Shown: positions 1,753 to 45,490 of the stretch, one piece after another
Layout of the letters: every line of letters begins with the position of its first letter
How positions within the stretch are numbered: position 1 is the first letter of the stretch
Assembly: GCA_017438525.1 (NCBI GenBank)
Contig: JAFRVI010000004.1
Span: 15,281-79,280 of the forward strand
Reading direction: 5' to 3'
Length of the DNA stretch: 64,000 bases
DNA from: Clostridia bacterium
Lineage (GTDB): Bacteria > Bacillota > Clostridia > Oscillospirales > RGIG8002
The notes under the pieces: generated by a model
Told to the model about the DNA's origin: nothing
Seen by the model: the letters and a program-made list of their open reading frames with translations, nothing else
Database searches by the model: none
Made by a program: the position numbers and the translations under genes

Positions 1753-2444
1753 TTGAATTCCTCCGTATACAAGGCGTGGACCGATTTGCCGTTATCGGCA
1801 CGCATTTTCTCCGCATCTGCGTAACGCGTTATTCTGCCCGCGGAAATAAACGCGGCGTCCTGAATTATACGCTCAACGTCGGACGGAGTCTGTGACGTGA
1901 TGATTACCGAGCTGTTATCCGGACGGCCGGAAACGATCGAGTCGAGGACGTAGCTTAAAGTCGCCGTATCAACGGATTTGACGGGATCGTCGAGCAAATA
2001 GAGCTTTGCGGCGCGGCTGACGGTTAGTGAAAGACGCAGCTTCTGAACGCTGCCCTTTGATAAATCCGCTAATTTATTCTTTGGCTCCACGCCGAGATCG
2101 GAGAGCATGGCGAGCGCTTTGCGTTCATCAAAATCCGCGTAGAAATCGCGGTAAACGCGCAGTATGCCGGCGACTGAATCGCGTTCGTTAAAGCCGTCTT
2201 TATCCGGAAGGAACGCGGTGATCCGCTTCGTTTCCGCTCCCGGCGTTTTGCCGTCGATGAGCAGTTCTCCGCCATTCGGCGTAAGCAGGCCGGCGGCGAG
2301 CTTCAAAAGCGTAGTTTTTCCGCTGCCTTTCGGTCCGAACAAGCCGACGATACGGCCCGGCTCGACAGTGAGATCAAGTCCGTTTACGGCGGGAGTATCG
2401 CCGTAGTTCTTTATCAGGTTTTTGCATTCAAGGATGGGGGACAA
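1746..2444 (-). CDS. ABC transporter ATP-binding protein, degenerate catalytic motifs
   Basis: Walker A GPKGSGKTT, signature LSKG, Walker B LYLLDD (E replaced), H-loop region TSQ; TTG start with GGAGGTG RBS. Confidence 0.88.
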   Translation of the reverse strand: MSPILECKNLIKNYGDTPAVNGLDLTVEPGRIVGLFGPKGSGKTTLLKLAAGLLTPNGGELLIDGKTPGAETKRITAFLPDKDGFNERDSVAGILRVYRDFYADFDERKALAMLSDLGVEPKNKLADLSKGSVQKLRLSLTVSRAAKLYLLDDPVKSVDTATLSYVLDSIVSGRPDNSSVIITSQTPSDVERIIQDAAFISAGRITRYADAEKMRADNGKSVHALYTEEFKC

Positions 2445-2469
2445 AACGCCACCTCCGTTTCTGTTCGTT

Positions 2470-2501
2470 AAAAGCCGCGGCTGTCGGATGGCGGCCGCGG
2501 C
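2470..2501 (-). terminator. Possible weak terminator after DUF1846 gene
   Basis: GCCGCGGC-12nt-GCCGCGGC stem followed by TTTT on minus strand. Confidence 0.45.
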
Positions 2502-2507
2502 GAAGGA

Positions 2508-18798: not shown

Positions 18799-19473
18799 TC
18801 AAATTCCGTATTTGATCTTCAATCGCTCTATCTTTTTGCCTATCGGTTTCGCGAGGAGCAGCAGGAAGATGACGTTCGAGATCGCGTAAATTATCGTGAA
18901 CGGCAGGGAAGTGCCGATCTTCGTCACGTATACGGCAAGGTTGAATTCGTTCGTGTACCACATCGCCGTTTGAATATCCATTATCAGTGAGAATATCACT
19001 CCAGCCAGCGCGCCGTAAACGCAGGTAATTATCAGATTCCTGCGAAGCAGAGGGGCGAGCAGACCGGCGAAGAGCCCGACGAGTCCCGACGCGAGCATCT
19101 GATACGGCGTCCACGGGCCCTGCCCGAAGTAGAAGTTCGATATCAGCGCCGTCATCGCGCCGCAGATGAAGCCGGCTTCGCCGCCGAAATACATAGACAG
19201 CAGTATTATTATCGCCGTTACCGGCTTGAACGCTGGTATGACCGCGAAAACGAGCCGTCCTACGATCGACAGCACGCACATTATCGAGATCACTATAAGC
19301 TGCCTTGCGCTGTTTTCTTTTTTCTCAAACGAAATGAAGAGCGCCGCGAGCGATATGACTACGATAACGAGCGAAAGATAGGCGTAACTCTTATCAGAAA
19401 AGACGGTTGCCGCGAGCAGTACGCTTATCGGTACGGAAAGCAGCAGTATCGCGATCGAGAGTTTTTTTCTCAT
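18799..19473 (-). CDS. ECF transporter S component, CbrT-like (cobalamin)
   Basis: Start ATG 19473 (MRKKLSIAILL) overlapping ATPase stop; PAFKPVTAIII, ALISNFYFGQGPWTPYQM motifs; riboswitch context. Confidence 0.85.
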   Translation of the reverse strand: MRKKLSIAILLLSVPISVLLAATVFSDKSYAYLSLVIVVISLAALFISFEKKENSARQLIVISIMCVLSIVGRLVFAVIPAFKPVTAIIILLSMYFGGEAGFICGAMTALISNFYFGQGPWTPYQMLASGLVGLFAGLLAPLLRRNLIITCVYGALAGVIFSLIMDIQTAMWYTNEFNLAVYVTKIGTSLPFTIIYAISNVIFLLLLAKPIGKKIERLKIKYGI

Positions 19474-21095
19474 GTCCGCTTCCTTCCGTTTATTTCGCAG
19501 AGTTTCACGACGTCGTCCGCGGTCACTGCGCGGTCGTAATGGCCGCGGCTCATTCTGCTTGCGGCGGTCGTATAGAAGTTGTTTTCCGAGAAGAAGGTTT
19601 CGGGCTCTTCGACCGCGGCGACGGCGCCGTTGAAAAACAGCGCGCATCTGTCCGCGCAGGAGGCGGCGAATTCGACGTCGTGCGTAACGAGCAGCGTGGT
19701 CACGCCGTCGGCTTTGAGCTTGCGGAGTATTTCGATTACGCGCCTTTTCGCCGCGGCGTCGACGCCCTTTGTCGGCTCGTCGAGGAGAAGCAGACGCGGC
19801 TTGAGAAGAAGCATTTTCGCGAGTGCGCAGAGCTGCTGTTCGCCGCCGCTCAGGTCGTAAGGATGCTTATCCAGATAAGGCGTCACTTCGAATGGGAGGG
19901 AAGAGAGGTCTTCGCTTATTTCCGCGAGGTCTTCGCGTACCGTTTCGCGCAGGAAGACCGTCTGCACGTCCTGCGGCAGCATCGCGACGCAGTTTTTGTA
20001 TAGCTCTCCGCTTTTATAGGCGTAAATCTTTTTGCCGAAAACCTCGACTTTGCCGGAGTACGCTTTAAGCAGTCCCGCCGCGACGGAGAGCGCAGTTGTT
20101 TTGCCTGAGGCGTTGTCGCCGAGGAGGCAGAATATTTCGCCTTCTTTCACGGAAAGATTGAGATCGCAGAGCACGTCGGGAAGCTCTCTTCCGTAGCGGA
20201 AGAAGACGCGTGAAAACCGCAGCGCTTCTTTGCCTGACGTACGCTCCGGCGCGGGCAGTTCTTTGGTTTCGTTGCCGTATTTTTCTATAAAAGCGCGGCC
20301 TTCCTTGACGGTCAGCGGGTATTCGCAGTCCGCATCGAGCGCCTTGCAGACGCGCACCGCGCAGGGCATCGCGGCTTCCATTAAGTCGTTTTTGTCCATT
20401 CCCGCGGCGACGGCGCGCGGCTCGCCGTACGCGATAAGCTTGCCGTCTTTAAGCTGGATGGCTTTGTCTGCTGTGAGGAAGAGATCTTCGAGGCGGTGCT
20501 CGGAAATGATTATCGTCAAAGAAAGCTCGCGGTTGAGCTTAGCGAGAGTCGCTATGAATTCAGAAGCCGCGATCGGATCGAGCTGGCTCGTCGGTTCGTC
20601 GAGAAGCAGGAGCTTCGGCTGCGTTACCATAACGGAAGCGAGGTTGAGAAGCTGCTTCTGGCCTCCGGAAAGCTCGGAAACGTCGCGCAGGAACCAGTTG
20701 CCGATGCCGAAGTAGCTCGCCATTTCGCTGATGCGGCGGTTTATCGCGCTTTTTGAAGAGCCCGCGCTTTCAAGTCCGAACGCAAGCTCATGCCAGACCT
20801 TGTCGGTGACAATCTGATTCTCCGGCTTCTGCATAACGAAGCCGATTTCGGTCGCGGCGGTTTTTGCGTCAAGGTCGGACAGTTCGGCGCCCTTGTAAAG
20901 AATGCTGCCGGACTTTTCGCCGGCAGGGGAAAGCTCGCGCTTCAGCATGCGCAGAAGCGTGGTTTTGCCGCAGCCGGTCTCCCCGAAAAGTACGATGAAA
21001 TCTCCTTCATTCACGCTGAACGAAACGTCGTTTAACGCCTCGCGGTCGCATTTCGGATATTCGAATGTCAGATTCTTGACGTTAAGTATCTCCAT
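19470..21095 (-). CDS. ECF transporter fused A-A ATPase
   Basis: Two NBDs: GETGCGKTT/LSGGQKQ/LLLDEP and GDNASGKTT/LSGGEQQ/LLLDEP; Q-loop FVMQKPENQIV; start ATG 21095. Confidence 0.93.
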   Translation of the reverse strand: MEILNVKNLTFEYPKCDREALNDVSFSVNEGDFIVLFGETGCGKTTLLRMLKRELSPAGEKSGSILYKGAELSDLDAKTAATEIGFVMQKPENQIVTDKVWHELAFGLESAGSSKSAINRRISEMASYFGIGNWFLRDVSELSGGQKQLLNLASVMVTQPKLLLLDEPTSQLDPIAASEFIATLAKLNRELSLTIIISEHRLEDLFLTADKAIQLKDGKLIAYGEPRAVAAGMDKNDLMEAAMPCAVRVCKALDADCEYPLTVKEGRAFIEKYGNETKELPAPERTSGKEALRFSRVFFRYGRELPDVLCDLNLSVKEGEIFCLLGDNASGKTTALSVAAGLLKAYSGKVEVFGKKIYAYKSGELYKNCVAMLPQDVQTVFLRETVREDLAEISEDLSSLPFEVTPYLDKHPYDLSGGEQQLCALAKMLLLKPRLLLLDEPTKGVDAAAKRRVIEILRKLKADGVTTLLVTHDVEFAASCADRCALFFNGAVAAVEEPETFFSENNFYTTAASRMSRGHYDRAVTADDVVKLCEINGRKRT

Positions 21096-21946
21096 TTGAG
21101 TATCTCCGTTATCTCCAGGACCGCGGGCAGAAGCGCCAGCGTCCCGTAGGAAATGTAGCATGCGACTATCAGCGCCGTCGTTTCGGGGAGCGCGACGGTC
21201 GGATAGAATTGCATTGACAGTCCGCCGACTGCGGCGAAGGTTATCGCCGAAGCGGCGAGGAGTACGGTTATGATCGTGAAAACGATATCCGAAGCGTGAT
21301 ACTTATAAAGCGAAAAAGCCGTTCTGTGCTTCAATCCGTAGCCGCGCGCCTTCATCGAGTCAGCGGTGTCGATCGAGTTTTCGAGCGACCAGGTGGTGAG
21401 TATCGAAAACACGCGTGCGGAGCCCTTCAGCTTGTCCGTGATATTATCGGCGGTATAAAGTCCCATCGCCGTCTGCGTCGCTCTGATCTTTTCATGCTGT
21501 TTTTTGAAAAGCGGGATATACCGCAGCGCCGCGCAAAGTATGACGGAGGTTTTCGGGAGAACGCTTCCGACCAGATAAAGCAGCTTTTCGCCGGTCATTA
21601 CCGCGGAAAACGAGCGGAACCAGATCAGTATTCCGATTATCATTACCGCCGAGACCGCGCCGTAGATTATCGCTTCAAGCGTTACCGGCTTGTTGTTGAT
21701 AAAAAACAGCTCGGTATCTCCGTTGTGGGAAATAAGCGGGTTTATAACGGTTATGCCGAGAAACAGCAGGGAATAGAGCAGTATTCCGCTTTTTTCTCCG
21801 CTTTTTCTGACGCACAGGAGGCAAAGCGTTGCCCCGAGCAGAGAAAGAGCGAGTATAACCGGGTCGAGCACGAACATCGGCAGCAGTATTACAGTCAGAA
21901 AGTATATGAAAAGAGCCGTCGGGTGAAGGCGTTTGATATCGGTCAT
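21068..21946 (-). CDS. ECF transporter T component (EcfT/CbiQ family)
   Basis: LHPTALFIYF start, ALRYIP, WSLENSIDTADSMKARGYG with conserved A-R-G coupling motif. Confidence 0.93.
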   Translation of the reverse strand: MTDIKRLHPTALFIYFLTVILLPMFVLDPVILALSLLGATLCLLCVRKSGEKSGILLYSLLFLGITVINPLISHNGDTELFFINNKPVTLEAIIYGAVSAVMIIGILIWFRSFSAVMTGEKLLYLVGSVLPKTSVILCAALRYIPLFKKQHEKIRATQTAMGLYTADNITDKLKGSARVFSILTTWSLENSIDTADSMKARGYGLKHRTAFSLYKYHASDIVFTIITVLLAASAITFAAVGGLSMQFYPTVALPETTALIVACYISYGTLALLPAVLEITEILKWRYLTSRI

Positions 21947-23724
21947 CCGTTTTCAGCGTCCTTTCCGAGATCGAGGGTGTAAACCCATTCGATAACGTCG
22001 CCGTCCTTGATGTCGTAGCTGCCGCAACCGACGTCCGGAGTGTAATTGTTCACGCGGTATATCCATCCGGACAAAGCGCCGTACTGCATCTCCGAGAAAC
22101 CTGCGATTGAGCTTACGTATACGCTCAGAACCCCTCCGGCGTTGCCCGTGTAATTGATTTTAATCTGATTTGCGCGGGTTACCGCGAGCAGCGCGTCGAA
22201 CACCGTGTCGCCTTCATTGATAACGTATTTAGTCGGCTTGAGGATGTATCCGTCCTCGGGTATGTTCTCTTCAACGCCCTCGAGTATGCGGCAGCTGATG
22301 CTGATAGTGACGGTATTGTCACCTTCACCGGCGCTGCTCAAGTTGACGGAATAGTAATCTTTGACGGAGGTGAAGTTAAGAAGCAGAACGCCGCAGATGA
22401 GCAGGATCGCGACTACGGCGATAGGTATGACATTCTTTAGCGACGCTTTTTTCTTGATCGCAAGAATCACGCAGACGGCCGCGAACAGAAGCCCTATCGC
22501 ACCGCAAACGTAGAACTTATACGCCGACTTATTTGACGGCGCGGCCGTTTCCGAGCCGGATGACATCTCTGAAGCGCTGTCAATAGAAGAGGATAGCGAA
22601 GATACTCCGGCGCCGTCTTCTGAAGATGCGCTCGACGACTCGTCTGATGAAGCGTCGGACGATGATGAGTCGGGGGTCTCGGTATTTTCGGAGCTGCCGA
22701 GTGTTTCGCCCGAAGAACTGTCTGCCGGATCATCGGGAGTCACGACGGGCGGCTCGGGGTCCGGTTTCACGGGCTTTTTGAAAGAAAAGTAAGGCGATTT
22801 GCCGGTCGAAAAGCGTTCAGCGGCGACAAGCGCGCGCGCCGCCTGCTCGGTTGCGATCGCGTTGCGCCCCGTACCTGTTGTGTGGCAATATGATCCGTCG
22901 CTGAGCTGATAGCGCCTGAGTCCGTCGTATACGGTGTTTCCGTTCTTGATAAATGCGGTATTCTTCGCGGGATCGATGCCGAGCGCAGTAAGCGCTACGA
23001 TCACTTGCGCAGTGCTTTCGCAGGTGGGCATGGGCGGTCTTCCCATACCCATCATACTCTTGAAGTCGCCGTCGTCCGTCTGCTTTTCGGAAAGCATCGA
23101 GAGCGCTCTGTCGATCGCGGACGCTACGTCGGTTCTTGCTTTATACGGCGCAAGCGCCTGAAGAGCCATAGAAGTAACGTCGACGTCGGAAACCGCGCCG
23201 AAAAGCGACCAACCGTTATCTTGAAGCTGGCTGTCAAGGATAGCTTTTATCAGCGTGTTCCTGTCGTTTCGTGCGCTGTCGTAACCGCCGCAGTCGAGGA
23301 GGATAAGTCCGAAAATAATTCCGTTTATTCCTGTCGCGGAAAAATCTGCTTCAAGCGTTGAGTTCACAAATTCATTGCTGACTCCGGCAGCGGTATATGC
23401 AATGGCAACACGTTCTTTTTCGGTGTTGTTTTTTGGCTCGTTCGCGACAAGGTATTCATCAAGCGCGGCTATGTATTTGTCTCCGTTGAGAGACGCGTCG
23501 TGACGCATCAAATCGATAAAGAGCCAGTCGCCGTAACTGCTTCCGGCTTCTTTAACAAGTGTGTTGTCGATAAATCCCTGCAGCGTGCCGCCTTCGCTCG
23601 CAAACAGAGAAAACAGTTTTGAAGATTGAGACGCATAAGCGCTTGCAGGTAAGGCGATGCCTGCCGCGATAACGAGTATCAGCAGCAGGCATATTATTGA
23701 TTTGAATTTGAAAAGCTTTTTCAA
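21943..23724 (-). CDS. Membrane-anchored transcobalamin-like protein: prenyltransferase/squalene-oxidase-repeat barrel + Ser-rich linker + TM hairpin + DUF4430
   Basis: Signal peptide; QW-like repeats (LDSQLQDNGW, DVDVTSMALQALAP, EKQTDDGDF, ESTAQVIVALTALGID, YQLSDGSY); C-terminal YVSSIAGFSEMQYGALSGWIYRVNNYTPDVGCGSYDIKDGDVIEWVYT; TTG start. Confidence 0.8.
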   Translation of the reverse strand: MKKLFKFKSIICLLLILVIAAGIALPASAYASQSSKLFSLFASEGGTLQGFIDNTLVKEAGSSYGDWLFIDLMRHDASLNGDKYIAALDEYLVANEPKNNTEKERVAIAYTAAGVSNEFVNSTLEADFSATGINGIIFGLILLDCGGYDSARNDRNTLIKAILDSQLQDNGWSLFGAVSDVDVTSMALQALAPYKARTDVASAIDRALSMLSEKQTDDGDFKSMMGMGRPPMPTCESTAQVIVALTALGIDPAKNTAFIKNGNTVYDGLRRYQLSDGSYCHTTGTGRNAIATEQAARALVAAERFSTGKSPYFSFKKPVKPDPEPPVVTPDDPADSSSGETLGSSENTETPDSSSSDASSDESSSASSEDGAGVSSLSSSIDSASEMSSGSETAAPSNKSAYKFYVCGAIGLLFAAVCVILAIKKKASLKNVIPIAVVAILLICGVLLLNFTSVKDYYSVNLSSAGEGDNTVTISISCRILEGVEENIPEDGYILKPTKYVINEGDTVFDALLAVTRANQIKINYTGNAGGVLSVYVSSIAGFSEMQYGALSGWIYRVNNYTPDVGCGSYDIKDGDVIEWVYTLDLGKDAENG

Positions 23725-23754
23725 GGTCCTTACCTCAAGTTGTAATTGTTCGTA

Positions 23755-25302
23755 TTACGCAAGTTTAGCGGCAATGCGAAGAACGGCGAGAGCATCTGAA
23801 ACCGTGATCTCTCCGTCTTTGTCCATGTCGCAGATAGCGATAACATCATAGGTTGCGGGGGCGAGCTTAGCGGCAATGCGAAGAACGGCGAGAGCGTCGG
23901 AGACCGTGATCTCTCCGTCGTCGTCCATATCACCGGGGATCCTCGTGATCTTCGGAATGTCAACGGTGAAATCCGGAGCGAAACGCAGTACGAGCGGCAG
24001 TCCGTTTTCCGCCTTCTTTTCTATTTGTATCGCGTGAACACCTTCGGACAAGAGATCGCGCTGAACCGTGATCTTGCCTTCATCGTCGGTAACGTACTCG
24101 GTGCCTTCGAAGTAGACTGTCGCTCCCGCGACGGGGTTTACTGTCACGACGGGGGTATAGTCCAAGTCGTAAGACGTATCGGCGCTGGTGAATTTGATTA
24201 CGCGCTTATTTATTTCGGAAAGGTCAACTTCCGGATACTGCATGCCGACTCCGTAGGGATCGCCGTAGTAGAAAAGGACTGAGTCTCCGTCTGCGAGATT
24301 GACGCCGTTTATTCCGGTTGCGGCTTCGATTCCGTTGACGGTGAACAGCCAGCCGTCCCAGCCGCCGAAGGCGCCCGCGGCGTCGCCGTTTATGCTTGTA
24401 ATGTAAGGAGATGCCCCTTCGGCTCCGACTACGGTCAGGTTTTCATTCTGTTCATCTGCATAGATGATCATATCCTGAACAGTGAGACTTTCGGACGTGT
24501 ATGGAACCGTGACGTCGTCATAGAAAAGGTTTTCGTTTATGCCTTCGATGCGAAGCTTAACGGTCATCGTTTTGGGCTTCTCTGGTACGGTAACTTTATA
24601 GTCGGGAGCGAGGCGCAGGACGAGCGGAACGCCCTTGTCGCCCTTTTTATCGATCGAAAGAGAATGATCGCCGGCGGTAAGATACTGCTCCTCTATGGTG
24701 ATCTTTCCGTCTTTGTCGGTAATATAGGTCACGGGCGTTTCGCCGCCGAAGACGACCGTCATGTCGGCGCCGGGATTTTCGGTAACGGTGGGGTTATACT
24801 GTTCGTCGTATGTGGTGTCCATGCTCGTGAAGCGTATAACTCCGTTTGCGATATCTGAAACGTCGGGAACAGGGTACTGCATACCGACTCCGTAGGGGTC
24901 GCCGTAGTAGAAAACGACGCTGTCGCCTTCTTTCAGATTATAAGCGTTGACACCGACGGGCGGCTCCTCGCCGTTAACGGTGTAGAGCCATCCGGAATAC
25001 CCGCCCATCGAGCCGGCAACGTCGCCGTTTATGTCGGTGATATAGGGCGATGAACCGGTCGCGCCGACGACGGTTATAGCGTCGCTGTTATTGTCAGCGT
25101 AGATGATCAGGTCCTGTACGGTTAGGTTCGCCGATGAATACTGGATCGTCAGCGTGTCGTAATAGTAGTTCTGTGCGATTCCTTCGATACGAAGGGTAAC
25201 GGTCATCTGGTGCTGAGCCCCGGCGAATACCGCCATCGGCAGCGCAGCGGTCGCTATGGTAAGAACAAGCAGCAGCGCCAGGATCTTTTTGATGTTTCTC
25301 AT
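23755..25302 (-). CDS. Secreted tandem (DUF4430 + Ig-like)x2 protein with C-terminal type I dockerin; putative cobalamin-binding protein
   Basis: Signal peptide MRNIKKILALLLV (GGAGG RBS before ATG 25302); two 213-aa repeats each with YIT.ING...GWL.TVNG...G.....L..GDSV.FYY; two Ca-binding repeats GDMDDDGEITVSDALAVLRIAAKLA. Confidence 0.8.
   Translation of the reverse strand: MRNIKKILALLLVLTIATAALPMAVFAGAQHQMTVTLRIEGIAQNYYYDTLTIQYSSANLTVQDLIIYADNNSDAITVVGATGSSPYITDINGDVAGSMGGYSGWLYTVNGEEPPVGVNAYNLKEGDSVVFYYGDPYGVGMQYPVPDVSDIANGVIRFTSMDTTYDEQYNPTVTENPGADMTVVFGGETPVTYITDKDGKITIEEQYLTAGDHSLSIDKKGDKGVPLVLRLAPDYKVTVPEKPKTMTVKLRIEGINENLFYDDVTVPYTSESLTVQDMIIYADEQNENLTVVGAEGASPYITSINGDAAGAFGGWDGWLFTVNGIEAATGINGVNLADGDSVLFYYGDPYGVGMQYPEVDLSEINKRVIKFTSADTSYDLDYTPVVTVNPVAGATVYFEGTEYVTDDEGKITVQRDLLSEGVHAIQIEKKAENGLPLVLRFAPDFTVDIPKITRIPGDMDDDGEITVSDALAVLRIAAKLAPATYDVIAICDMDKDGEITVSDALAVLRIAAKLA
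23945..25206 (-). repeat. Internal tandem duplication, period 639 nt (213 aa)
   Basis: MTVTLRIEG at 25206 and MTVKLRIEG at 24567; shared FYYGDPYGVGMQYP and PLVLR.APD motifs. Confidence 0.9.
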
Positions 25303-25317
25303 TGTTTTTACCTCCAT

Positions 25318-25352
25318 AAAAAATACCTTTCCCGCTATTCAGGCAGAAAAGG
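25318..25352 (-). terminator. Attenuator hairpin in riboswitch expression platform
   Basis: CCTTTTCTGC-CTGAATA-GCGGGAAAGG followed by TATTTTTT just before the RBS. Confidence 0.6.
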
Positions 25353-25439
25353 CGCGTAACAAAACAAGGCCGATTGAATCGGCGTGCGTTCGCGCTTTTC
25401 GCTGCCCAAAAGCGTTCTCCGATCAAACGGAGCCGAACT

Positions 25440-25535
25440 CTCTTCCGGTAGGCGACCCGACTTGTGACGCTTTCGTCAGATACGGTAATGGCTGTTGCGT
25501 CGGATTCTCACCGCGCTTCTCCCGGGCCGGAAGAG
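25440..25535 (-). ncRNA. Cobalamin riboswitch, short (class II-like) form
   Basis: Minus strand: CTCTTCCGG...GGGAGAAGCGCGGTGAGAATCCGACGCAACAGCCATTACCGTA...AAGTCGGGTCGCCTA-CCGGAAGAG; 9-bp closing stem, GGTG-x-AATCC T-loop, B12-box-like 3' element; upstream of B12-type ECF genes. Confidence 0.85.
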
Positions 25536-25553
25536 TATTCAGTTTATGATTGC

Positions 25554-25610: not shown

Positions 25611-26435
25611 CTACTCATTTTGATAGGAGCGCCCGATGCGTTGTCCCATTACGACAGGGATCTCTTCTCCGGAATCGAGCTTGAACGCCTCGTCGACGGA
25701 AGCCCGTCCTTTTTCGATAAGGAGGATCACGGTACTGCCTCCGTAAAGGAATCGGCCTTTTTCTTCGCCGCGCGCGAACTTGTGGACGCCATGATAATTG
25801 TCTATCTTTCCGACAAGCATTGCGCCGACCTCTATCTGTACGGCGTCTCCGAAGTTGTCGGTGTGCATCAAAGTGTATTCGCGGCAGTTCTCGACAAACA
25901 CCGGCAGCGCTTCGAGCGCGGTAGGTCTGACGGTGTGGAGGAATCCCGGTATAAAGACGTTATCCTCTTTTTTGCCGCCGTCGAAATAACAGTAGCGGTG
26001 ATAGTTGTCAACACATAGCCGGAATATAAGGCACAGCCCGTCCTCAAACCTCTCGGCAAGCTTTTCGTCGCGGAGCAGAGAGGCGATCGTATATTTGCTT
26101 TGCTTGACCGGAAGTACGGTATCTCCGCTTATGCTGTACGCCGTCAGCAGTCCGTCGCAGGGGGAAATCAGCGCGGACGCTTCTGCGTCAATCGGACGGT
26201 ACCCTTCGCGTATCTGTCTGCAGAAACAGTCGTTGAAGCATTTGAAATCATCAGCGTAGTACTGCGACAGGTCTATGTTGTTCTTCTTGACGAACTTTTT
26301 TATTAAATGCTTGGAGAGACGTGAATCAAGATATTTTCCGCATAGACGCGAAAGCCATCTGCGTTTGATGATTTTCAAGCACAGACGGCCGAAGGCGTTA
26401 TTGTAAAGGAATATTACGGATTTGCTTTCGCTCAT
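25611..26435 (-). CDS. psd: Phosphatidylserine decarboxylase proenzyme
   Basis: FNDCFCRQ, ISPCDG, RLCVDNYHRY, EVGAMLVGKI, YGGSTV self-cleavage motif. Confidence 0.95.
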   Translation of the reverse strand: MSESKSVIFLYNNAFGRLCLKIIKRRWLSRLCGKYLDSRLSKHLIKKFVKKNNIDLSQYYADDFKCFNDCFCRQIREGYRPIDAEASALISPCDGLLTAYSISGDTVLPVKQSKYTIASLLRDEKLAERFEDGLCLIFRLCVDNYHRYCYFDGGKKEDNVFIPGFLHTVRPTALEALPVFVENCREYTLMHTDNFGDAVQIEVGAMLVGKIDNYHGVHKFARGEEKGRFLYGGSTVILLIEKGRASVDEAFKLDSGEEIPVVMGQRIGRSYQNE

Positions 26436-26449
26436 GACGGCTCACTTTC

Positions 26450-27196
26450 TTAATTGAAGATAAGCAGTATAGATATCGCGATAAACTCTATGGCGCCGAT
26501 GGCGACCATTATTAAGACCTGTTTCATCGTCGGCTTCTTGAAACTGAACTTTGCGAGAAAGAGATACCCTGTAATCAGCATGGTTACGAAATACAGGGGA
26601 GTCAGATCAACGCCGAGCGTGAGGTCGAAGATGTAGCGCAGAAGGAGAACGGTAGGGAAGATGAGCGCCGACGAAGTTACGGGAAGTCCGGTATAGGTCG
26701 TCGGTGAATCGGGCGCGGTCTGCATACGTTCGTCCTCTTTAACATTGAAATACGCGAGACGAATCAAGGCGGCAAGTGAGAATAGTACGAGCAGGGCCAT
26801 TATCAGTATCTTAAGCACTATGAAGTACCATTCCGTGTCGCCGAAAAGCTCTTTGAAAATTGCCGGCGGAACGACGGAGGAAGCCAGCGGGTATATCTTT
26901 GAGAAAAGCGGTGAGGTGTTCAGCGCAGCGTAGCCGATGCATGCGGGAAGCACGCCGAATGCAACGACATCGGAAAGGGAATCGATCTGGATCCCGAATT
27001 TGCGTCCGTTGTCGGTTCGGTCTTTTTTCGTTCTGGCGACCTTTCCGTCAAACGCGTCACAGAGACCGCAGAAGAGGAGAAAAAACGCGCCTATGTAGGG
27101 GTGTCCGTTCCCCGTAAGCGAAATGATCGAGCCGAGGGTAGCGGACGCCAAAGAAAGATACGTCAGTATAACCGTATAATCATATATTCCTATCAT
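26450..27196 (-). CDS. pssA: CDP-diacylglycerol--serine O-phosphatidyltransferase (CDP-alcohol phosphotransferase)
   Basis: DAFDGKVAR...FGIQIDSLSDVVAFG motif, RLAYFN, GLP; start ATG 27196; adjacent to psd. Confidence 0.88.
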   Translation of the reverse strand: MIGIYDYTVILTYLSLASATLGSIISLTGNGHPYIGAFFLLFCGLCDAFDGKVARTKKDRTDNGRKFGIQIDSLSDVVAFGVLPACIGYAALNTSPLFSKIYPLASSVVPPAIFKELFGDTEWYFIVLKILIMALLVLFSLAALIRLAYFNVKEDERMQTAPDSPTTYTGLPVTSSALIFPTVLLLRYIFDLTLGVDLTPLYFVTMLITGYLFLAKFSFKKPTMKQVLIMVAIGAIEFIAISILLIFN

Positions 27197-28271
27197 TGTT
27201 CTTTCTCCCCTTGAAGTAGATGTAAAGCATAAACATTCCGCATACAAATACACAGATGTAGAACGAAAGCGTGCGGCTCAAAAGCTCGAGCGTACCGGGC
27301 TGAACCGGTGACTTTACGATCAGACTGCTGAAGCCGTCTATCATAAGATAGTCGGTTACTCCTATTGAGCCGGGTATCGGAACGAAAGTGGAACCTAACA
27401 GTACATAGATCTGCATTACGAAGATGTTGAATATTTCGGCTCCGCGCCCGCCGAGCGCAATAAACGTGAACATCGTTACCGAAATGACGGATGCGCGCTG
27501 AAGAATGTTTATACCAAGCACTTTCGCCATCATTGAGCGTTTGCCGTGGAGGTATTCGGCGTATTTGTCATATTCCGCCATTTTGTCGCTGAATGTGTTT
27601 TGCAGCTTGTCTTCGTCCCGTATGATGCGGAGTTTCGCGGTAAAGTGTATCAGGCGCCTGCCGATGCTGTGGAGAAGTTTCTTGTTTTTTATAAGTATCA
27701 GCACGAGCAGCGCGAGGGTGAACTGTATAACGGTTCCTACTATTATCATAACGCGCGATACGACGCTGAACTTGAGGAACAGCGACGGCCTCGCGATAAA
27801 CGCGAAAATGCCGAGTACGGCGATCGAAAGTGTATACATCAGCAGATTGACGAGAAGCGCAATCGCCGCGAATACACCCGGGATGCCGTCCTTGATCATT
27901 ACATACGCCTGGGCGGGCTGACCGCCGGTCGCCGAAGGAGTAATCGAAGAAAAGTAGAATCCGGTCGAGGAATAGAGCAGACCGCTTTTCAGGCGTCTTC
28001 CGTATCCGAATGAACGGCAGATATACATCAGCGAAAGCGCTTCGAACAGGATGTATCCGAATGTGCCGCAGATCGCGGCGATGATCCACGGAGGAGAAGC
28101 GGTGCTGACGCTCTTGAAGAATTCGCTGAAGTGGAAGTTGCGGTTGAAAGACGTCACCGCCACGACGCTGAGAACTGCGATAACTATAAAGAGGATAGAC
28201 CACAGAACGCGATGAGAGCCGTGCTTTTGTTTGACGTCGTTCTCGCTTTCGTTTATCGGGCTATTGCTCAA
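27180..28271 (-). CDS. Lysylphosphatidylglycerol-synthase TM region / flippase-like membrane protein (UPF0104)
   Basis: FSSITPSATGGQP, VPIPGSIGVTD, RTLSFY motifs; about 8 TM; probable TTG start at 28271 after GAAAGGA. Confidence 0.85.
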   Translation of the reverse strand: MSNSPINESENDVKQKHGSHRVLWSILFIVIAVLSVVAVTSFNRNFHFSEFFKSVSTASPPWIIAAICGTFGYILFEALSLMYICRSFGYGRRLKSGLLYSSTGFYFSSITPSATGGQPAQAYVMIKDGIPGVFAAIALLVNLLMYTLSIAVLGIFAFIARPSLFLKFSVVSRVMIIVGTVIQFTLALLVLILIKNKKLLHSIGRRLIHFTAKLRIIRDEDKLQNTFSDKMAEYDKYAEYLHGKRSMMAKVLGINILQRASVISVTMFTFIALGGRGAEIFNIFVMQIYVLLGSTFVPIPGSIGVTDYLMIDGFSSLIVKSPVQPGTLELLSRTLSFYICVFVCGMFMLYIYFKGRKNNDRNI

Positions 28272-28989
28272 GTGACATTTCCTTTCGGGCGTCTGTTGCA
28301 AGGCGCTTTTTGTTAATGGATGCGAAGACTCGGTCGGCGCGTGTCAAACGACAGATGAGTAGGCCTATCTCCGCGACCAGCACTCCGGCCGGTATGTCTA
28401 TCAACACGTGCTGGTGAATCAATACAGTAGAGGCAAACACGAGCATTGTGAATACGAACGAAAACGGCGCATACCACTTTCTGATGTCTTTAAGATGAAT
28501 CGATCCGCGGAAGCATATCCAGCTCTCGAGGCAATGAATCGAGGGGAACAGGTTGATCATGGGAGTATCGATGAAATACATCCAGCTGACCAAGGTGTAA
28601 AACGGACCGGTTTGTGTGATTTCCGGCCGAGTCATCATCGTCGGATAGAAAATAAATACCATCAAGGCGATGAACTTCGCGATAATCTCGCCGGTCATGA
28701 AGCGATAGCAGAGAGATTCGCTCTCTCTCGCTATAAGAGTGAATCCGACAAACCATTGCACGTAAGAAAGCACGTAAATGATTATGAATACGGGAACGAG
28801 CGGGACGTCAACGCCGAGAAATATTGAATTAACGTTTGCCGTTGTGTCTTCCGCAAGCATATGCGGAGGACCGATCACACCGAGCACGATAAGCAGCTTC
28901 GGCAGGTAATAGGCAAGCATATTGAAACCCAGTACGGTCCAGAGCGGAACGACCGCATATCTGGGGAATATCTTCCTTAACAGCTTCAT
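28261..28989 (-). CDS. PAP2-superfamily membrane protein (AUR1/inositol-phosphoceramide-synthase-like)
   Basis: IFYPT..RP, NLFPSIH, STVLIHQHVLID catalytic His/Asp motifs. Confidence 0.85.
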   Translation of the reverse strand: MKLLRKIFPRYAVVPLWTVLGFNMLAYYLPKLLIVLGVIGPPHMLAEDTTANVNSIFLGVDVPLVPVFIIIYVLSYVQWFVGFTLIARESESLCYRFMTGEIIAKFIALMVFIFYPTMMTRPEITQTGPFYTLVSWMYFIDTPMINLFPSIHCLESWICFRGSIHLKDIRKWYAPFSFVFTMLVFASTVLIHQHVLIDIPAGVLVAEIGLLICRLTRADRVFASINKKRLATDARKEMSLEQ

Positions 28990-41352: not shown

Positions 41353-42744
41353 ATGAAAAGATTCTTTTCCGTCATAATTGCCCTTTCGATAGCGGCGTCG
41401 CTTTTTATAATCTCGCCGGTAACCGCGAAAGCATTATATAAAGTAAAAATCGCCTGCATAGGCGACAGCATTACTGACGGCGGCTTTATACCGGGATACG
41501 GCTATCCCGACGGACAGGGCCTCGATGACCCCCGCTGCTATCCGAAGCAGCTTGAAGCTCTGCTCGGCGAGAACTACGAGGTAAAGAACTTCGGAGACAG
41601 CGGCAGAACGCTGATGAGCACCGCGGATTATCCTTATATTTCCGCTCCCGGCGAGCTCTATCGTGAAAGTCTTGAATATGACGCTGATATAGTTCTGATA
41701 ATGCTCGGTACCAACGACGCGAAGGTTACGAACGATCCGAGCACCACGAACTGGAAAGAGGATAGTCCGCAGCAGTTCAAGACCGATCTGGAGGCGCTTA
41801 TCGAGGTTTATCGCAATCTGCCGAGTCATCCGACGGTTTATGTGCTGACTTCGCCGACCGCGTTCAACAACGGCGCTTATAACATCGTTCCCGCCAATGT
41901 CGACACGATAGCGGAACTGCAGCGCGAGGTCGCCGCGGATCTCAACGCTCCGCTTATCGATATGCACACGCTCACGGCTGATATGGGAACTTATTTCAGT
42001 GATAACATCCACCCGAATCAGGCGGGCTACGCCCGTTTGGCGCAGCTTGTATATAATGAGCTTGTGCCGACTTTCACAGCGCCTTCCGCGCCTGTTGACG
42101 TCAGAGTCGTGAGCAACGGCAGCGGCAGGTCGATCGTTTCCTGGACGACCGGCAATAAGGGCGGACTGCCTACGCTTAATTTCAAGGTCTACATAGACGG
42201 CGAATTCATCGCGGACTTCGAACGCATGACTTACACCGCGAAAAACCTCACCAACGGCAGCGTATATGATTTCAACGTGACCGCCGTCAATTCGCTCGGC
42301 GAATCCGTTTTTTCGGAAACCGTGCAGCTTCAACCGACCGCGGCGGACCCGAAAGTCACAGGCGTTGCCGACGGAGTCGTTTACGACCTCGCGGACGGAG
42401 CGCCGAAGGCGAGCTGGAAAACGGCTACTTCAGCCACTCTCGACGGTAACGAATACGTGAAAGACACGGAAATAACAACTTTAGGCGAACATACTCTTGT
42501 CGTTACAAATGATAACGTCGTCGTTTCCGTAACCTTCACGGTTATTGATTCATCCTTTATGCCCGGAGATATGGACGGCGACGGCGAGATCACCGTCGCG
42601 GACGCGCTCGCGGTACTGCGCATTGCCGCGAAACTTGCTGATGAGACACCCGACGCTCTGCGTATTGGAGATATGGACGGCGACGGCGAGATCACCGTCG
42701 CGGACGCTCTCGCGGTACTGCGCATCGCCGCGAAACTTGCGTGA
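41353..42744 (+). CDS. Secreted SGNH/GDSL esterase 1 (sialate O-acetylesterase-like) + Fn3 + Ig-like + dockerin
   Basis: Signal peptide; SGNH blocks GDSIT, NFGDSG, GTND, DNIHP; Fn3 (SWT..GLP..FKVY...Y.F.V.AVN..GES); double GDMDGDGEITVADALAVLRIAAKLA. Confidence 0.88.
   Translation: MKRFFSVIIALSIAASLFIISPVTAKALYKVKIACIGDSITDGGFIPGYGYPDGQGLDDPRCYPKQLEALLGENYEVKNFGDSGRTLMSTADYPYISAPGELYRESLEYDADIVLIMLGTNDAKVTNDPSTTNWKEDSPQQFKTDLEALIEVYRNLPSHPTVYVLTSPTAFNNGAYNIVPANVDTIAELQREVAADLNAPLIDMHTLTADMGTYFSDNIHPNQAGYARLAQLVYNELVPTFTAPSAPVDVRVVSNGSGRSIVSWTTGNKGGLPTLNFKVYIDGEFIADFERMTYTAKNLTNGSVYDFNVTAVNSLGESVFSETVQLQPTAADPKVTGVADGVVYDLADGAPKASWKTATSATLDGNEYVKDTEITTLGEHTLVVTNDNVVVSVTFTVIDSSFMPGDMDGDGEITVADALAVLRIAAKLADETPDALRIGDMDGDGEITVADALAVLRIAAKLA
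42565..42741 (+). repeat. Near-identical coding repeats (dockerin halves, 102-nt period); further copies at 43956, 45314, 45416 and 23758-23934 (minus)
   Basis: GATATGGACGGCGACGGCGAGATCACCGTCGCGGACGC (38 nt) identical at 42568, 42670 and 43956. Confidence 0.9.
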
Positions 42745-42788
42745 TAAATCTTTTCATTTTATATTCACAACCGAAAGGGGGGCAGCGT

Positions 42789-44132
42789 GTGAAAAGATTG
42801 GTTTCGCTTATTACAGCGTTATCGCTCATGATGTCGCTTCTCATTATCCTTCCGACAGAGGTTAAAGCCGTTTACAAGGCGAAAATCGCATGCGTAGGCG
42901 ACAGCATTACATACGGATACGGTCTCGACGATCCGCGAAGCTTCCCGTCGCAGCTCGGCGTGCTTCTTCAGGAAAACTACGAAGTCAGGAACTTCGGCGC
43001 GGGCGGCAAGACGCTTATGAGCACCGGAGATACCCCTTATACGCAATATATCGAGTATCAGCCGAGTCTTGAATATGAAGGCGATATCGTTCTGATAATG
43101 CTCGGCACGAACGACGCCAAGTATTATAACTGGCATCCCGATTCTTCTCCGGCCGTTCTGAAGCGCGAACTGAAACAACTTGTTCAGACATACCGCGATC
43201 TGCCGAGCAAACCCACGGTGTTCATTATGACGTCCCCGACGCTTTTCGAGGGATGCCACCACGACTTCATACCATCTAACGTCGATACGATCGCGCAGCT
43301 TCAGCGTGAAGTTGCAGAGGAGATCAACGCTCCGCTTATAGACCTGCACACGTTCACCGCGGATATGGAGCAGTATTTCGAGGATAAAATCCACCCGAAT
43401 GCCGATGGATACGCCTTGATCGCCGATTACATCGACGATATTATCGTCGCTAACGAGGGAACGCTTCCCGGAGCTCCGAAAGACCCTTACGTTTTAAGAA
43501 ACTCCAGCGGAAGGTCTATCGTTATGTGGAGCACCGGACCGAAGGGCGGACTGCCGCTTCTCTCGTTCAACGTCTACATTAACGGCGAATTCTACGGAAA
43601 CAGCCGCAGCACAACGTTTACCGTAACTAAGCTTACGAACGGCGTTACTTATGAAATGACGGTTACTTCGCTTAACGCAAACGGCGAATCAGAGCGGTCC
43701 GAGGTCGTAATACTCGAACCGACGGCGGACGATCCGAAGGTTACCGGCGTTGAAGACGGCGGCGTTTACGATCTCTCCGAGGTCGCACCGCCGAAGGCAA
43801 GCTGGAAAAAAGCAACGTCCGCAACCCTCGACGGCGCTGAATACGCTAAAGATACCGAAATAACCGCCCCGGGCGAGCACGTCCTCGTCATCACTAACGA
43901 AAACGTAACCGTTACTGTCACCTTTACGGTTATCGCTCGCGAAACCGCCGCAGGTGATATGGACGGCGACGGCGAGATCACCGTCGCGGACGCTCTCGCG
44001 GTACTCCGCATCGCGGCGAAACTTGCCGACGAAACACCCGACGCTCTCCGCGTCGGAGATATGGACGCCGACGGCGCGATTACGGTTTCCGACGCTTTGA
44101 GAGTTCTTCGTATCGCCGCTAAGCTCGCGTAA
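42789..44132 (+). CDS. Secreted SGNH/GDSL esterase 2 + Fn3 + Ig-like + dockerin
   Basis: GTG start 42789 after GAAAGGGG; GDSITYG, NFGAGG, GTNDA, DKIHP; same C-terminal modules. Confidence 0.88.
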   Translation: MKRLVSLITALSLMMSLLIILPTEVKAVYKAKIACVGDSITYGYGLDDPRSFPSQLGVLLQENYEVRNFGAGGKTLMSTGDTPYTQYIEYQPSLEYEGDIVLIMLGTNDAKYYNWHPDSSPAVLKRELKQLVQTYRDLPSKPTVFIMTSPTLFEGCHHDFIPSNVDTIAQLQREVAEEINAPLIDLHTFTADMEQYFEDKIHPNADGYALIADYIDDIIVANEGTLPGAPKDPYVLRNSSGRSIVMWSTGPKGGLPLLSFNVYINGEFYGNSRSTTFTVTKLTNGVTYEMTVTSLNANGESERSEVVILEPTADDPKVTGVEDGGVYDLSEVAPPKASWKKATSATLDGAEYAKDTEITAPGEHVLVITNENVTVTVTFTVIARETAAGDMDGDGEITVADALAVLRIAAKLADETPDALRVGDMDADGAITVSDALRVLRIAAKLA

Positions 44133-44146
44133 GAAAGGGTAAGGAT

Positions 44147-45490
44147 ATGAAAAAAGCGCTGTCATTACTGGTTTTGCTTTCGATAGTCATTTCCGTTTGC
44201 GCGTTTGCGCCGTTCGTTGCCGAAGCGGCGCAGGTGATCAAAGTAGCTTGCATCGGCGACAGCATAACGTACGGCTACGGGCTTACGAGCTCGATGAGTT
44301 ATCCGACAAAGCTCGAGGGATATTTGGGCTCCAACTATGAGGTGACGAATTTCGGCGAGGGAAGCGCTACCATGCTTTCTGACGGCAAGAAGCCGTATAT
44401 CAGTCTTGATATTTATCAGCAGAGTCTGCAGTACGATTGCGACATAGTCGTTATCATGCTCGGCACGAACGACGGCAAGGAGTTTAACTGGGAAGGCAGT
44501 AATCCGAGAATAAACAAGTTCAAAAGCGAGCTTTCCGATCTGATTGATACCTACCGCGCGCTTCCTACTCATCCGACCGTTTACGTAATGACATCCCCCA
44601 CGGTTTTCGAAAACGGGAGTTACGGCATCGTTCCCGCAAGAGTAACCGAAATATCCGGACTTCAAAAGGAAGTAGCCGCGGAAAAGGACTGTCCGGTTAT
44701 CGATATGCACACTCTGACCGCAGATCAGAAGGATAAATTCCGCGACGACTACGTGCATCCCGAGGAATCCGGATACGACTTCATCGCGCAAAAAGTCGCG
44801 GAGCATATTCAGGCCTATCCCGGACGCGTCCCGGGTATCCCGCACAGTCTCGAAGTAAGGGATGCATCGAAAAGCGCTATTATTTCCTGGAAAATGACTG
44901 ACAAAGGCGATCTTCCGATGATTTCATACAATGTGTATGTCAATGGGGAGCTTTCAACGACGAGTTCGGGATTGACCGCGCGAGTCGGGAAACTTGTCAA
45001 CGGTCGGGAATACGAGATCCGCATTTCCGCGGTGAATGCCGTCGGAGAATCGGCGCTTTCCGAACCTGTCCTCGCGCATCCTACCGCCGCCGATCCTAAG
45101 GTTACCGGCGTAGAAGACGGAGCCGTTTATGATCTCGCGGACGGTGCGCCGGCGGCGAGTTGGAAGACTGCGACATCAGCTACGCTCGACGGCGAAGAAT
45201 ATGTCAAAGGTACGGAGATAACCGCCGAGGGAGAACATCTGCTTGTAGTAACTAATGATAATGTTGTCGTTACGATAGCGTTCACAGTGGTTAATTCGGC
45301 ATTTATACAGGGCGATATGGACGGAGACGGCGAAGTAACGGTCGCGGACGCTCTTGCGGTTCTTCGCATCGCCGCGAAGCTTGTTCCGGAAACGTCCGAA
45401 GCAATACGCATCGGCGATATGGACGGAGACGGCGAAATCACCGTTTCCGACGCTTTGCGGGTCCTTCGTATAGCCGCAAAACTCGCATAA
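44147..45490 (+). CDS. Secreted SGNH/GDSL esterase 3 + Fn3 + Ig-like + dockerin
   Basis: GDSITYG, NFGEGS, GTNDG, DYVHP; same C-terminal modules. Confidence 0.88.
   Translation: MKKALSLLVLLSIVISVCAFAPFVAEAAQVIKVACIGDSITYGYGLTSSMSYPTKLEGYLGSNYEVTNFGEGSATMLSDGKKPYISLDIYQQSLQYDCDIVVIMLGTNDGKEFNWEGSNPRINKFKSELSDLIDTYRALPTHPTVYVMTSPTVFENGSYGIVPARVTEISGLQKEVAAEKDCPVIDMHTLTADQKDKFRDDYVHPEESGYDFIAQKVAEHIQAYPGRVPGIPHSLEVRDASKSAIISWKMTDKGDLPMISYNVYVNGELSTTSSGLTARVGKLVNGREYEIRISAVNAVGESALSEPVLAHPTAADPKVTGVEDGAVYDLADGAPAASWKTATSATLDGEEYVKGTEITAEGEHLLVVTNDNVVVTIAFTVVNSAFIQGDMDGDGEVTVADALAVLRIAAKLVPETSEAIRIGDMDGDGEITVSDALRVLRIAAKLA

Follow-up and report, generated by a model that had tools for sequence, protein, structure and literature searches.

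A dockerin-bearing protein with two transcobalamin-like DUF4430 units in a predicted corrinoid-uptake operon of a Clostridia bacterium

Introduction

What does a secreted protein made of two DUF4430 domains, two immunoglobulin (Ig)-like domains and a C-terminal dockerin bind, and what would hold it at the cell that makes it? The question is raised by a gene on the minus strand (23755-25302) of a 64,000-nucleotide (nt) stretch of DNA, hereafter the window, of an uncultured Clostridia bacterium of the ruminant gut, for which an earlier note, made from the letters alone, had proposed two corrinoid-binding sites and a dockerin as the only visible retention device. Gut and rumen communities are shaped by competition for B12-type cofactors, and the Gram-positive machinery for B12 capture is almost unstudied in comparison with BtuG and BtuH of Bacteroides. 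The analysis described here indicates that the 515-residue product is very probably an accessory protein of corrinoid uptake and, with less assurance, that it is held on the producer's surface through a cohesin-dockerin contact. The model as a whole, in which the protein serves as the outermost part, a tethered antenna, of a corrinoid uptake system that is apparently repressed by B12, is regarded as the likelier reading, with moderate confidence.

Gene structure and transcobalamin-like fold

The minus-strand open reading frame (ORF) extends from 23755 to 25317 (520 amino acids), and an in-frame ATG further upstream lies within the Shine-Dalgarno sequence. The true start is the ATG at 25302, giving 515 amino acids, because GGAGG at 25311-25315 sits 8 nt 5' of it and because public gene calls for the identical protein are 515 amino acids long and begin with MRNIKK; the coordinates given earlier for the gene are thus right. 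The features of the gene are as follows.

23755..25302, minus strand: coding sequence, 515 amino acids plus stop, for a signal peptide, two (DUF4430 plus Ig-like) units and a dockerin (repeat analysis, Pfam, AlphaFold2 model, Foldseek)
25311..25315, minus strand: Shine-Dalgarno sequence GGAGG, spaced 8 nt from the start codon at 25302 (direct sequence reading)
25222..25302, minus strand: signal peptide, residues 1-27, predicted cleavage between VFA and GA, without lipobox (the only Kyte-Doolittle hydrophobic segment, without Cys; AlphaFold2 helix 2-25)
24862..25209, minus strand: unit 1 DUF4430/SLBB beta-grasp, about residues 32-147, with the variant loop GGYSGWLY (Pfam, Foldseek, motif analysis)
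24571..24861, minus strand: unit 1 Ig-like/prealbumin-like beta-sandwich, about residues 148-244 (all-beta in the AlphaFold2 model at a predicted local distance difference test score, pLDDT, above 85; weak Big_1 match)
24223..24570, minus strand: unit 2 DUF4430/SLBB beta-grasp, about residues 245-360, with the family-consensus loop GGWDGWLF (Pfam, repeat alignment, Foldseek, motifs)
23941..24222, minus strand: unit 2 Ig-like beta-sandwich, about residues 361-454 (repeat alignment, AlphaFold2 model)
23758..23940, minus strand: dockerin, two near-identical 24-residue segments (DMD[DK]DGEITVSDALAVLRIAAKLA; Pfam, phmmer, Foldseek, segment comparison)

This succession of domains, which the earlier note had proposed, is upheld by Pfam, self-alignment and the AlphaFold2 model, and the two units of about 213 amino acids with a 639-nt period are recovered both by self-offset and by aligning one half with the other. 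In self-comparison of the protein the top offset is 213 amino acids, with 110 identical positions (runner-up offset 53), and the DNA at a self-offset of 639 nt is 47% identical against a background of about 32%; when one half is aligned locally with the other, the score is 653 (shuffled sequences: 39 +/- 7) and a single 3-amino-acid indel is required, the units being 213 and 210 amino acids long. Tandem Repeats Finder reported no repeat in the gene, which is explained by its upper period limit of 500 nt, short of the 639 nt here, and by the strong divergence of the copies. The motifs conserved in the family (RIEGI, GW-x-x-VNG, YYGDPYGVGMQYP, FTS-DT-YD and G-PLVLR-APD) are all kept in both units.

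Two stretches of the protein belong to Pfam DUF4430 (PF14478; 87.8 bits against a cut-off of 23.8, E 6.5e-25), and the AlphaFold2 model, computed from an alignment of 80 homologues, has a mean pLDDT of 90.5 and a predicted template-modelling (TM) score of 0.72. When this model was compared with the PDB by Foldseek, the leading matches were the beta domains of transcobalamin, haptocorrin and intrinsic factor: a beta-grasp with an insert after the helix superposes on the transcobalamin beta domain, the isolated human domain (5no0/5np4) being matched at a target TM score of 0.79-0.80 and a root-mean-square deviation (rmsd) of 2.7-2.8 A over 110 columns, with a sequence identity of about 22%. The next match after the transcobalamin group is 3u7z, a solved bacterial DUF4430 protein. 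The earlier note had staked its proposal on this fold, and the model has it (5no0: TM score 0.80, rmsd 2.7 A). Fold comparison alone reached transcobalamin; PDB sequence and profile searches with the protein and two family alignments did not, and for that reason no residue-by-residue map of the pocket onto transcobalamin is offered. The model of the 515-residue protein contains no alpha-helical toroid domain, so the protein is not of the full-carrier type.

The domain of about 100 amino acids behind each DUF4430 domain is an all-beta sandwich with weak matches to bacterial Ig-like and prealbumin-like families. In relatives this Ig-like domain matches Big_1, SpaA and CarboxypepD_reg (Pfam), and the Ig-like domain of the window protein, in unit 1 as well as before the dockerin, weakly resembles the X-module of a scaffoldin type II X-Doc (E 0.07).

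A predicted operon for corrinoid import

The dockerin gene opens a minus-strand operon of five genes, the other members of which are listed below.

21943..23724, minus strand: 593-amino-acid protein with a signal peptide, an alpha/alpha toroid, a Ser-rich disordered linker, transmembrane helices at residues 401-423 and 429-448, and a C-terminal DUF4430 domain (Pfam, AlphaFold2)
21068..21946, minus strand: transmembrane component EcfT of the CbiQ family (Pfam CbiQ, E 3.9e-8)
19470..21161, minus strand: fused EcfA-A' ATPase, given as the ORF maximum, the true start being probably slightly downstream of 21161 (ABC_tran twice)
18799..19647, minus strand: CbrT-homologous S component of an energy-coupling factor (ECF) transporter, given as the ORF maximum, with a likely start near 19473 that would give about 224 amino acids, as in orthologues (phmmer, Pfam ECF-ribofla_trS)

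The AlphaFold2 model of the 593-residue protein (pLDDT 79.9) has full-length transcobalamin, intrinsic factor and haptocorrin as all of its 11 best PDB fold matches (TM scores 0.51-0.65, about 600 columns), with prenyltransferases and terpene cyclases ranking behind them. The protein is read from this model as a membrane-anchored, full transcobalamin-like protein, whose two-helix membrane hairpin should anchor the chain and leave both of its halves facing outward. Among its 550 homologues at E <= 1e-5 are variants with SLH, CWB2 or a dockerin; in this toroid-containing partner family a dockerin was found once (P0233), SLH and CWB2 being noted otherwise.

The remaining genes complete the parts of an ECF-CbrT-type importer, namely a CbrT-homologous S component, EcfT and two EcfA ATPase domains. 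The S component matches 6fnp_A (ECF-CbrT) in phmmer at E 4.1e-8 over residues 10-177 of 182, and 6FNP is the ECF-CbrT of L. delbrueckii, a transporter of vitamin B12 and cobinamide that has been characterised in structure and function (PMC5997447). The fused ATPase scores 309.7 and 289.1 bits with the NCBIfam models ECF_ATPase_1/2, just under their curated cut-offs of 315 and 330; its orthologue in locus L001 is 541 amino acids long. As an aside on this transporter type, the 1011-amino-acid relative P0206 combines Big_2 and DUF4430 with a weak ECF S-component segment (ECF-ribofla_trS, E 5e-4) and may be a binder fused directly to a transporter subunit.

The region upstream of the operon holds two further features.

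25414..25549, minus strand: adenosylcobalamin (AdoCbl)/cobalamin-riboswitch-like aptamer, sub-threshold (RF01482, Rfam and comparative leaders)
25318..25414, minus strand: long hairpin with a U-run behind it, interpreted as an expression platform of the terminator type that ends just before the Shine-Dalgarno sequence

The RF01482 match in the window leader spans the full model (1-149) at 25.2 bits (cut-off 50) and E 0.01, and the terminator-like site at 25353..25325 consists of a hairpin with a minimum free energy of -41 kcal/mol (z -2.4) and a following UAUUUUUU. A leader match of equal kind, at 29 bits, stands at the orthologous locus of the metagenome-assembled genome (MAG) GCA_017620395.1. 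Homologous loci were surveyed for riboswitches wherever enough upstream DNA was available, which gave 13 distinct loci; in 11 of these a cobalamin-clan match lies on the same strand directly 5' of the DUF4430 gene. Four of these matches exceed the Rfam cut-off (L006 at 50.1 bits, L014 at 95.3, L018 at 88 and L017 at 40.6, the last as AdoCbl-II), and sub-threshold cobalamin-class matches occur in L004, L008, L009, L010 and L016. The window leader and five homologous leaders align around a common core (GGTGAGAATCC...GCCATTACCGTA...AAGTCGGG), and the closing P1 helix of the six shows compensatory changes at 7 of its 8 pairs; such pairs are also present in the alignment of the window leader with that of L006. 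The window match is weak on its own and the comparative evidence is strong, which suggests that the leader works like a riboswitch even if its membership is not formal. Because cobalamin-class matches recur at the same place in homologous loci, with a shared core and compensatory pairs, the operon appears to be corrinoid-regulated and B12-repressed.

Two observations concern the leader itself. A group of leaders scores only 25-40 bits with RF01482 (cut-off 50), comprising those at 25414-25549 (minus strand) of the window, 9752-9891 of L001, 9711-9879 of L008, 9705-9873 of L009 and 9722-9844 of L010; it has its core and its covarying closing helix in common with a leader that passes RF00174, and may represent a cobalamin-riboswitch variant that current models under-detect. 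A plus-strand ORF of 97 amino acids (25256-25549), which overlaps both the gene at its 5' end and the riboswitch-like leader, looks like a chance ORF.

Judged from sequence, the leader, the transcobalamin-like neighbour and the CbrT-like ECF transporter together settle corrinoids as the predicted ligand class, and they make the corrinoid link firmer than the earlier note could see. The isolated human transcobalamin beta domain binds cobalamin and cobinamide unaided (PMC5599065), and by analogy we infer that each beta domain of the 515-residue protein, for which the fold is shown, binds a corrinoid on the nucleotide-loop face.

Two units: capacity or selectivity

The earlier note had quoted two differing pocket motifs, SMGGYSGWLY in unit 1 and AFGGWDGWLF in unit 2, both of which are present in the sequence, and had suggested different corrinoid preferences. 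In the AlphaFold2 model the loop motif falls where the insert ends and strand 3 begins, a region described as ligand-contacting (Burroughs et al. 2007, PMC1796856). Unit 2 carries the family consensus GGWDGW, and in 11 of 12 orthologues, which share only 70-89% overall identity, unit 1 has G-x-YSGW in place of GWDGW, a degree of conservation that points to purifying selection on the Y-S variant.

The reading towards which the evidence tilts is nevertheless that the duplication is neutral or serves capacity only, both units binding the same ligands and the loop differences being drift within a tolerated range; conservation of the unit 1 variant is what speaks against it. In its favour, the unit tree points to at least three independent origins of tandem duplication (P0017, P0018 and the dockerin clade each having sister units), several two-unit relatives keep GGWDGW in both units, Tyr at the first aromatic position is also common in single-unit relatives, and one orthologue, P0010, has reverted to GWDGW in both units. 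A gain in capacity or avidity from two units is accordingly the default interpretation, and a real difference in corrinoid selectivity, to which the loop sequences lend modest support, is doubtful. Unlikely as well is the fullest version of the proposal, according to which a cohesin-dockerin contact mounts a riboswitch-regulated vitamin antenna whose diverged units catch cobamides of different lower ligand, or cobinamide, and then hand them to the transcobalamin-like protein and ECF-CbrT. If the units did differ in cobamide selectivity, they would provide a natural tool to tell cobamides apart.

Probable retention at the cell surface

The only hydrophobic stretch of the 515-residue protein is its N-terminal signal peptide (MRNIKKILALLLVLTIATAALPMAVFA followed by GA), and sequence inspection and Pfam found no LPxTG, N-terminal Cys/lipobox or SLH match; the single Cys falls within the dockerin, which forms the C-terminal end of the protein. 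With no transmembrane segment beyond the signal peptide either, the dockerin is indeed the sole visible retention device, as had been noted.

Its identification rests on a Pfam Dockerin_1 match above the cut-off (PF00404; 26.0 bits against 22.9, residues 461-512 of the 520-residue frame) and on duplicated segments, in each of which a Ca2+-loop is followed by a helix, as the family demands. The two copies follow the pattern DMD[DK]DGEITVSD plus ALAVLRIAAKLA; each has an EF-hand-type loop with Asp at positions 1, 3, 5 and 12 and Thr at position 9, and the helices of the region in the AlphaFold2 model are at 467-477, 485-491 and 501-514. In Foldseek, the last 60 residues pair with 2ccl_B, a type I dockerin of C. 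thermocellum, at a TM score of 0.81, and by phmmer the dockerin matches 2ccl_B/1ohz_B weakly (E 0.018). The domain had been called a type I dockerin, of which the dockerin part stands and the type is putative, drawn from a generic Pfam name that spans all dockerin types and from best PDB matches to C. thermocellum type I that are weak; the Ig-like domain in front of it has its weak likeness to an X-module of type II. Within the dockerin-coding region, a 77-amino-acid minus-strand ORF in another frame (23730-23963) looks like a chance ORF.

Elsewhere in the window (41353-45490, plus strand) lie three tandem secreted paralogues of 463, 463 and 447 amino acids, each a GDSL esterase/lipase with fn3 and a dockerin, and the dockerins of these proteins (GDMDGDGEITVADALAVLRIAAKLA, twice) are nearly identical to that of the B12-binder gene. 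Because three further secreted proteins of the window carry near-identical dockerins, the domain is taken, on sequence grounds, to be the organism's standard tag and probably under selection.

The family as a whole suggests how the tag is used. Nearest to the window protein, at 68-100% identity, stand 14 proteins of 'Clostridia bacterium' MAGs with two units and a dockerin, after which come more than 100 single-unit proteins of about 300 amino acids that end in xPxTG plus a transmembrane helix and basic tail, in a transmembrane tail or in SLH; CWB2 is also among the anchors of single-unit relatives. Identical or near-identical sequences are present in gut, sheep-gut and bovine-gut metagenomes, and the relatives that a scan of genome contigs turned up were all distant and single-unit (Pseudoruminococcus, Ruminococcus, Butyrivibrio, Oscillospiraceae). 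An exhaustive HMMER search of 1.84 billion cluster representatives returned 161 members of the family at E <= 1e-30, a number that rises to 535 at E <= 1e-10. Among the best 150 of these, 19 are dockerin-like by pattern and 15 are confirmed by Pfam, so that at least 15 carry dockerins; four clusters in the same 150 combine two units with a dockerin (that of the window protein, P0241, P0243 and P0251), and their dockerin sequences are quite different. The singular design that the earlier note implied is therefore not what the family displays. All dockerin-bearing relatives examined lie in the same type of operon. Since most relatives carry sortase, transmembrane or SLH anchors in the same position, the dockerin is one of several interchangeable retention modules, and a recurrent one. 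A search with the dockerin alone returned short fragments only, with no information on cargo or cohesin.

A further kind of C-terminus was seen among single-unit representatives, some of which (P0269, P0280, P0305, P0308, P0318, P0328, P0331, P0337, P0346, P0368 and P0373) end in a short amphipathic tail rich in Phe, Lys and Ile (e.g., ...FFSKLADFFKNLFKR) and are without transmembrane helix, sortase signal, SLH or dockerin; the tail may be another attachment to membrane or wall.

One relative offers a possible receptor for the tag. In locus L014, a gene at 1837-2559 (plus strand), immediately 5' of the two-unit DUF4430-dockerin homologue P0241, encodes a 240-amino-acid protein with a signal peptide, a Pfam cohesin, an acidic/Ser-rich linker, a C-terminal transmembrane helix and a basic tail, and a cobalamin riboswitch of about 95 bits (2597-2779, plus strand) lies between the two genes. 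The cohesin protein has the expected look of a dedicated membrane anchor for the antenna and is a candidate for that role. A tblastn comparison of this cohesin with the window and with every fetched locus gave no homologue. A stretch of the partner-family protein P0233 that appeared cohesin-like by eye was rejected, having no Pfam cohesin match.

Retention at the surface has a rival in release. The protein could sit, alongside the GDSL esterases, in a scaffoldin complex that is not anchored, or its dockerin could be vestigial, in which case the binder would be a diffusible 'corrinophore' or bound to plant particles. Such a scavenger would suit two observations: Pfam detected no cohesin near the gene, whether in 41 ORFs of the window, in a further 10 kb of flank or at the orthologous locus, and the near-identical dockerins of the three GDSL esterase-fn3 proteins suggest a shared, enzyme-type scaffold. 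Competitors, however, would profit from a diffusible B12 binder, the equivalent position in relatives holds cell-retaining devices (sortase signals, transmembrane tails, SLH), and the candidate cohesin partner in L014 is itself membrane-anchored. Release is on these grounds considered improbable. Dockerins without recognisable cohesins are known in many genomes.

Proposed mechanism

The favoured reading, that of a surface-held corrinoid antenna, can be set out as a sequence of predicted steps. When intracellular cobalamin is low, the leader would let transcription pass the terminator and so switch on the five-gene operon, as the RNA matches and the hairpin suggest. The 515-residue protein would be exported by the Sec pathway, with cleavage of its signal peptide, and its dockerin would dock, in a Ca2+-dependent manner, into a cohesin carried by an anchoring protein on the cell; this step is predicted because anchors interchange within the family and because one relative has an adjoining gene for a membrane-anchored cohesin protein. 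Docking would hold the two transcobalamin-beta-type domains, on their Ig-like spacers, outside the wall, where each could bind a corrinoid in the manner of the isolated human domain. The ligand may then pass to the membrane-anchored transcobalamin-like protein and on to the CbrT-like S component for import by EcfT/EcfAA', a putative relay for which the gene content is shown. Two units per chain would offer double capacity or avidity and might widen the range of cobamides caught.

Several points weigh against this model. No cohesin was detected in the window, in the extra flank or at the orthologous locus, and a cohesin partner in the same genome is therefore hypothetical. The window leader falls well below the Rfam gathering score (25.2 against 50), which places it formally outside the cobalamin riboswitches (clan CL00101). 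Corrinoid binding in the DUF4430 family of Firmicutes is a prediction, drawn from sequence, and the order of hand-off among the three binding proteins is pure conjecture. Furthermore, the only operon of this type to have been studied experimentally, lsa1836-1840 of L. sakei, has been assigned to heme uptake (10.1101/864751).

That the ligand is heme or another non-corrin tetrapyrrole is very improbable: the mutant phenotypes and docking behind the L. sakei assignment (10.1101/864751), together with a gene for an iron-dependent repressor (DtxR-type; L004/L005, 6719-7117, minus strand) divergently upstream of a single-unit homologue operon, stand against cobalamin-class riboswitch matches directly upstream in 11 of 13 loci (four of them above the Rfam cut-off), an S component homologous over its whole length to the B12 transporter CbrT, and a domain fold that is the fold of B12 carriers. 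The DtxR-type gene of L004/L005 adjoins a near-threshold cobalamin riboswitch (27.4 bits).

Comparison with known systems

The general kind of system has been known by prediction since 2007, when bacterial transcobalamin-like SLBB proteins in CbiO/CbiQ operons were predicted to scavenge B12 (Burroughs, Balaji, Iyer and Aravind 2007, PMC1796856). The window operon has in common with those proteins the beta-grasp with a hairpin insert, the signal peptide, the Ig-fold fusion, a paralogous SLBB protein, the ECF-type genes and an alpha/alpha-toroid fusion in the same operon, as well as the predicted function. The anchors and fusions described there comprise Gram-positive anchors, FIVAR, fasciclin and propeller domains, with no occurrence of a dockerin (PMC1796856); likewise, that description includes neither a tandem copy of the entire SLBB-Ig unit nor control by a riboswitch nor an S component of the CbrT type, features that the window operon has, riboswitch control being predicted from a sub-threshold leader. 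A literature search for dockerins in connection with cobalamin or B12 brought up nothing relevant, and dockerin tethering and tandem bivalency of the SLBB-Ig unit appear to be undescribed. The tandem bivalent form and the predicted dockerin tether are thus what is new here. To a specialist, a dockerin on a B12 binder is not very surprising, because many non-enzyme cargos are known to carry dockerins.

Human transcobalamin, intrinsic factor and haptocorrin share the beta-domain fold with the 515-residue protein, and the 593-residue neighbour repeats their whole alpha-plus-beta architecture. The 515-residue protein differs from these carriers in having no alpha toroid and in having two beta domains, Ig-like domains and a dockerin; no receptor binding is implied by the likeness. 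Closer to hand, the L. sakei proteins Lsa1836-1838 and the L. delbrueckii ECF-CbrT likewise form an ECF transporter with a CbrT-type S component, and Lsa1839/Lsa1840 are secreted accessory proteins resembling the alpha and beta parts of transcobalamin (10.1101/864751). The L. sakei proteins, however, are single-domain and assigned to heme, and ECF-CbrT (PMC5997447, 6FNP) was characterised without extracellular accessory proteins; neither system has a dockerin or tandem units.

By function, the protein may be likened to BtuG, BtuH and BtuJ of Bacteroides, which are described as high-affinity surface corrinoid binders encoded in riboswitch-controlled loci and feeding a membrane transporter (PMC8941943). 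These proteins differ in being lipid-anchored in a Gram-negative outer membrane and in feeding the TonB-dependent BtuB, and no homology is claimed; that BtuH is a DUF4430 protein is not borne out by the text of PMC8941943. With non-cellulolytic cohesin-dockerin assemblies such as the Ruminococcus bromii amylosome (PMC4611034) the window protein shares the use of the dockerin as a general-purpose address tag for proteins that gut Clostridia secrete; the amylosome cargo consists of polymer-acting enzymes, whereas that of the window is a binder of a small molecule, a vitamin, with a riboswitch-like leader. The cargo of cohesin-dockerin systems would thereby be widened from enzymes to a micronutrient-binding protein. 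Together with its relatives, one of which has a candidate dedicated cohesin anchor in the adjoining gene, the locus gives, as a way into the study of Gram-positive B12 capture, a concrete set of parts that can be tested: a predicted riboswitch, a putative tethered antenna of beta domains, a bacterial transcobalamin bound to the membrane and an ECF-CbrT importer.

Neighbouring genes

Upstream of the operon (25611-28989, minus strand) lie ordinary and unrelated genes for a PAP2 protein, an LPG_synthase_TM-family protein, a CDP-alcohol phosphatidyltransferase, a phosphatidylserine decarboxylase and a GH125 alpha-mannosidase; this phospholipid/GH125 cluster is syntenic in the orthologous MAG. The rest of the window holds housekeeping genes of a sporulating Firmicute, including those for PolC, SpoIIE, SipL, RelA and isoprenoid and phospholipid synthesis.

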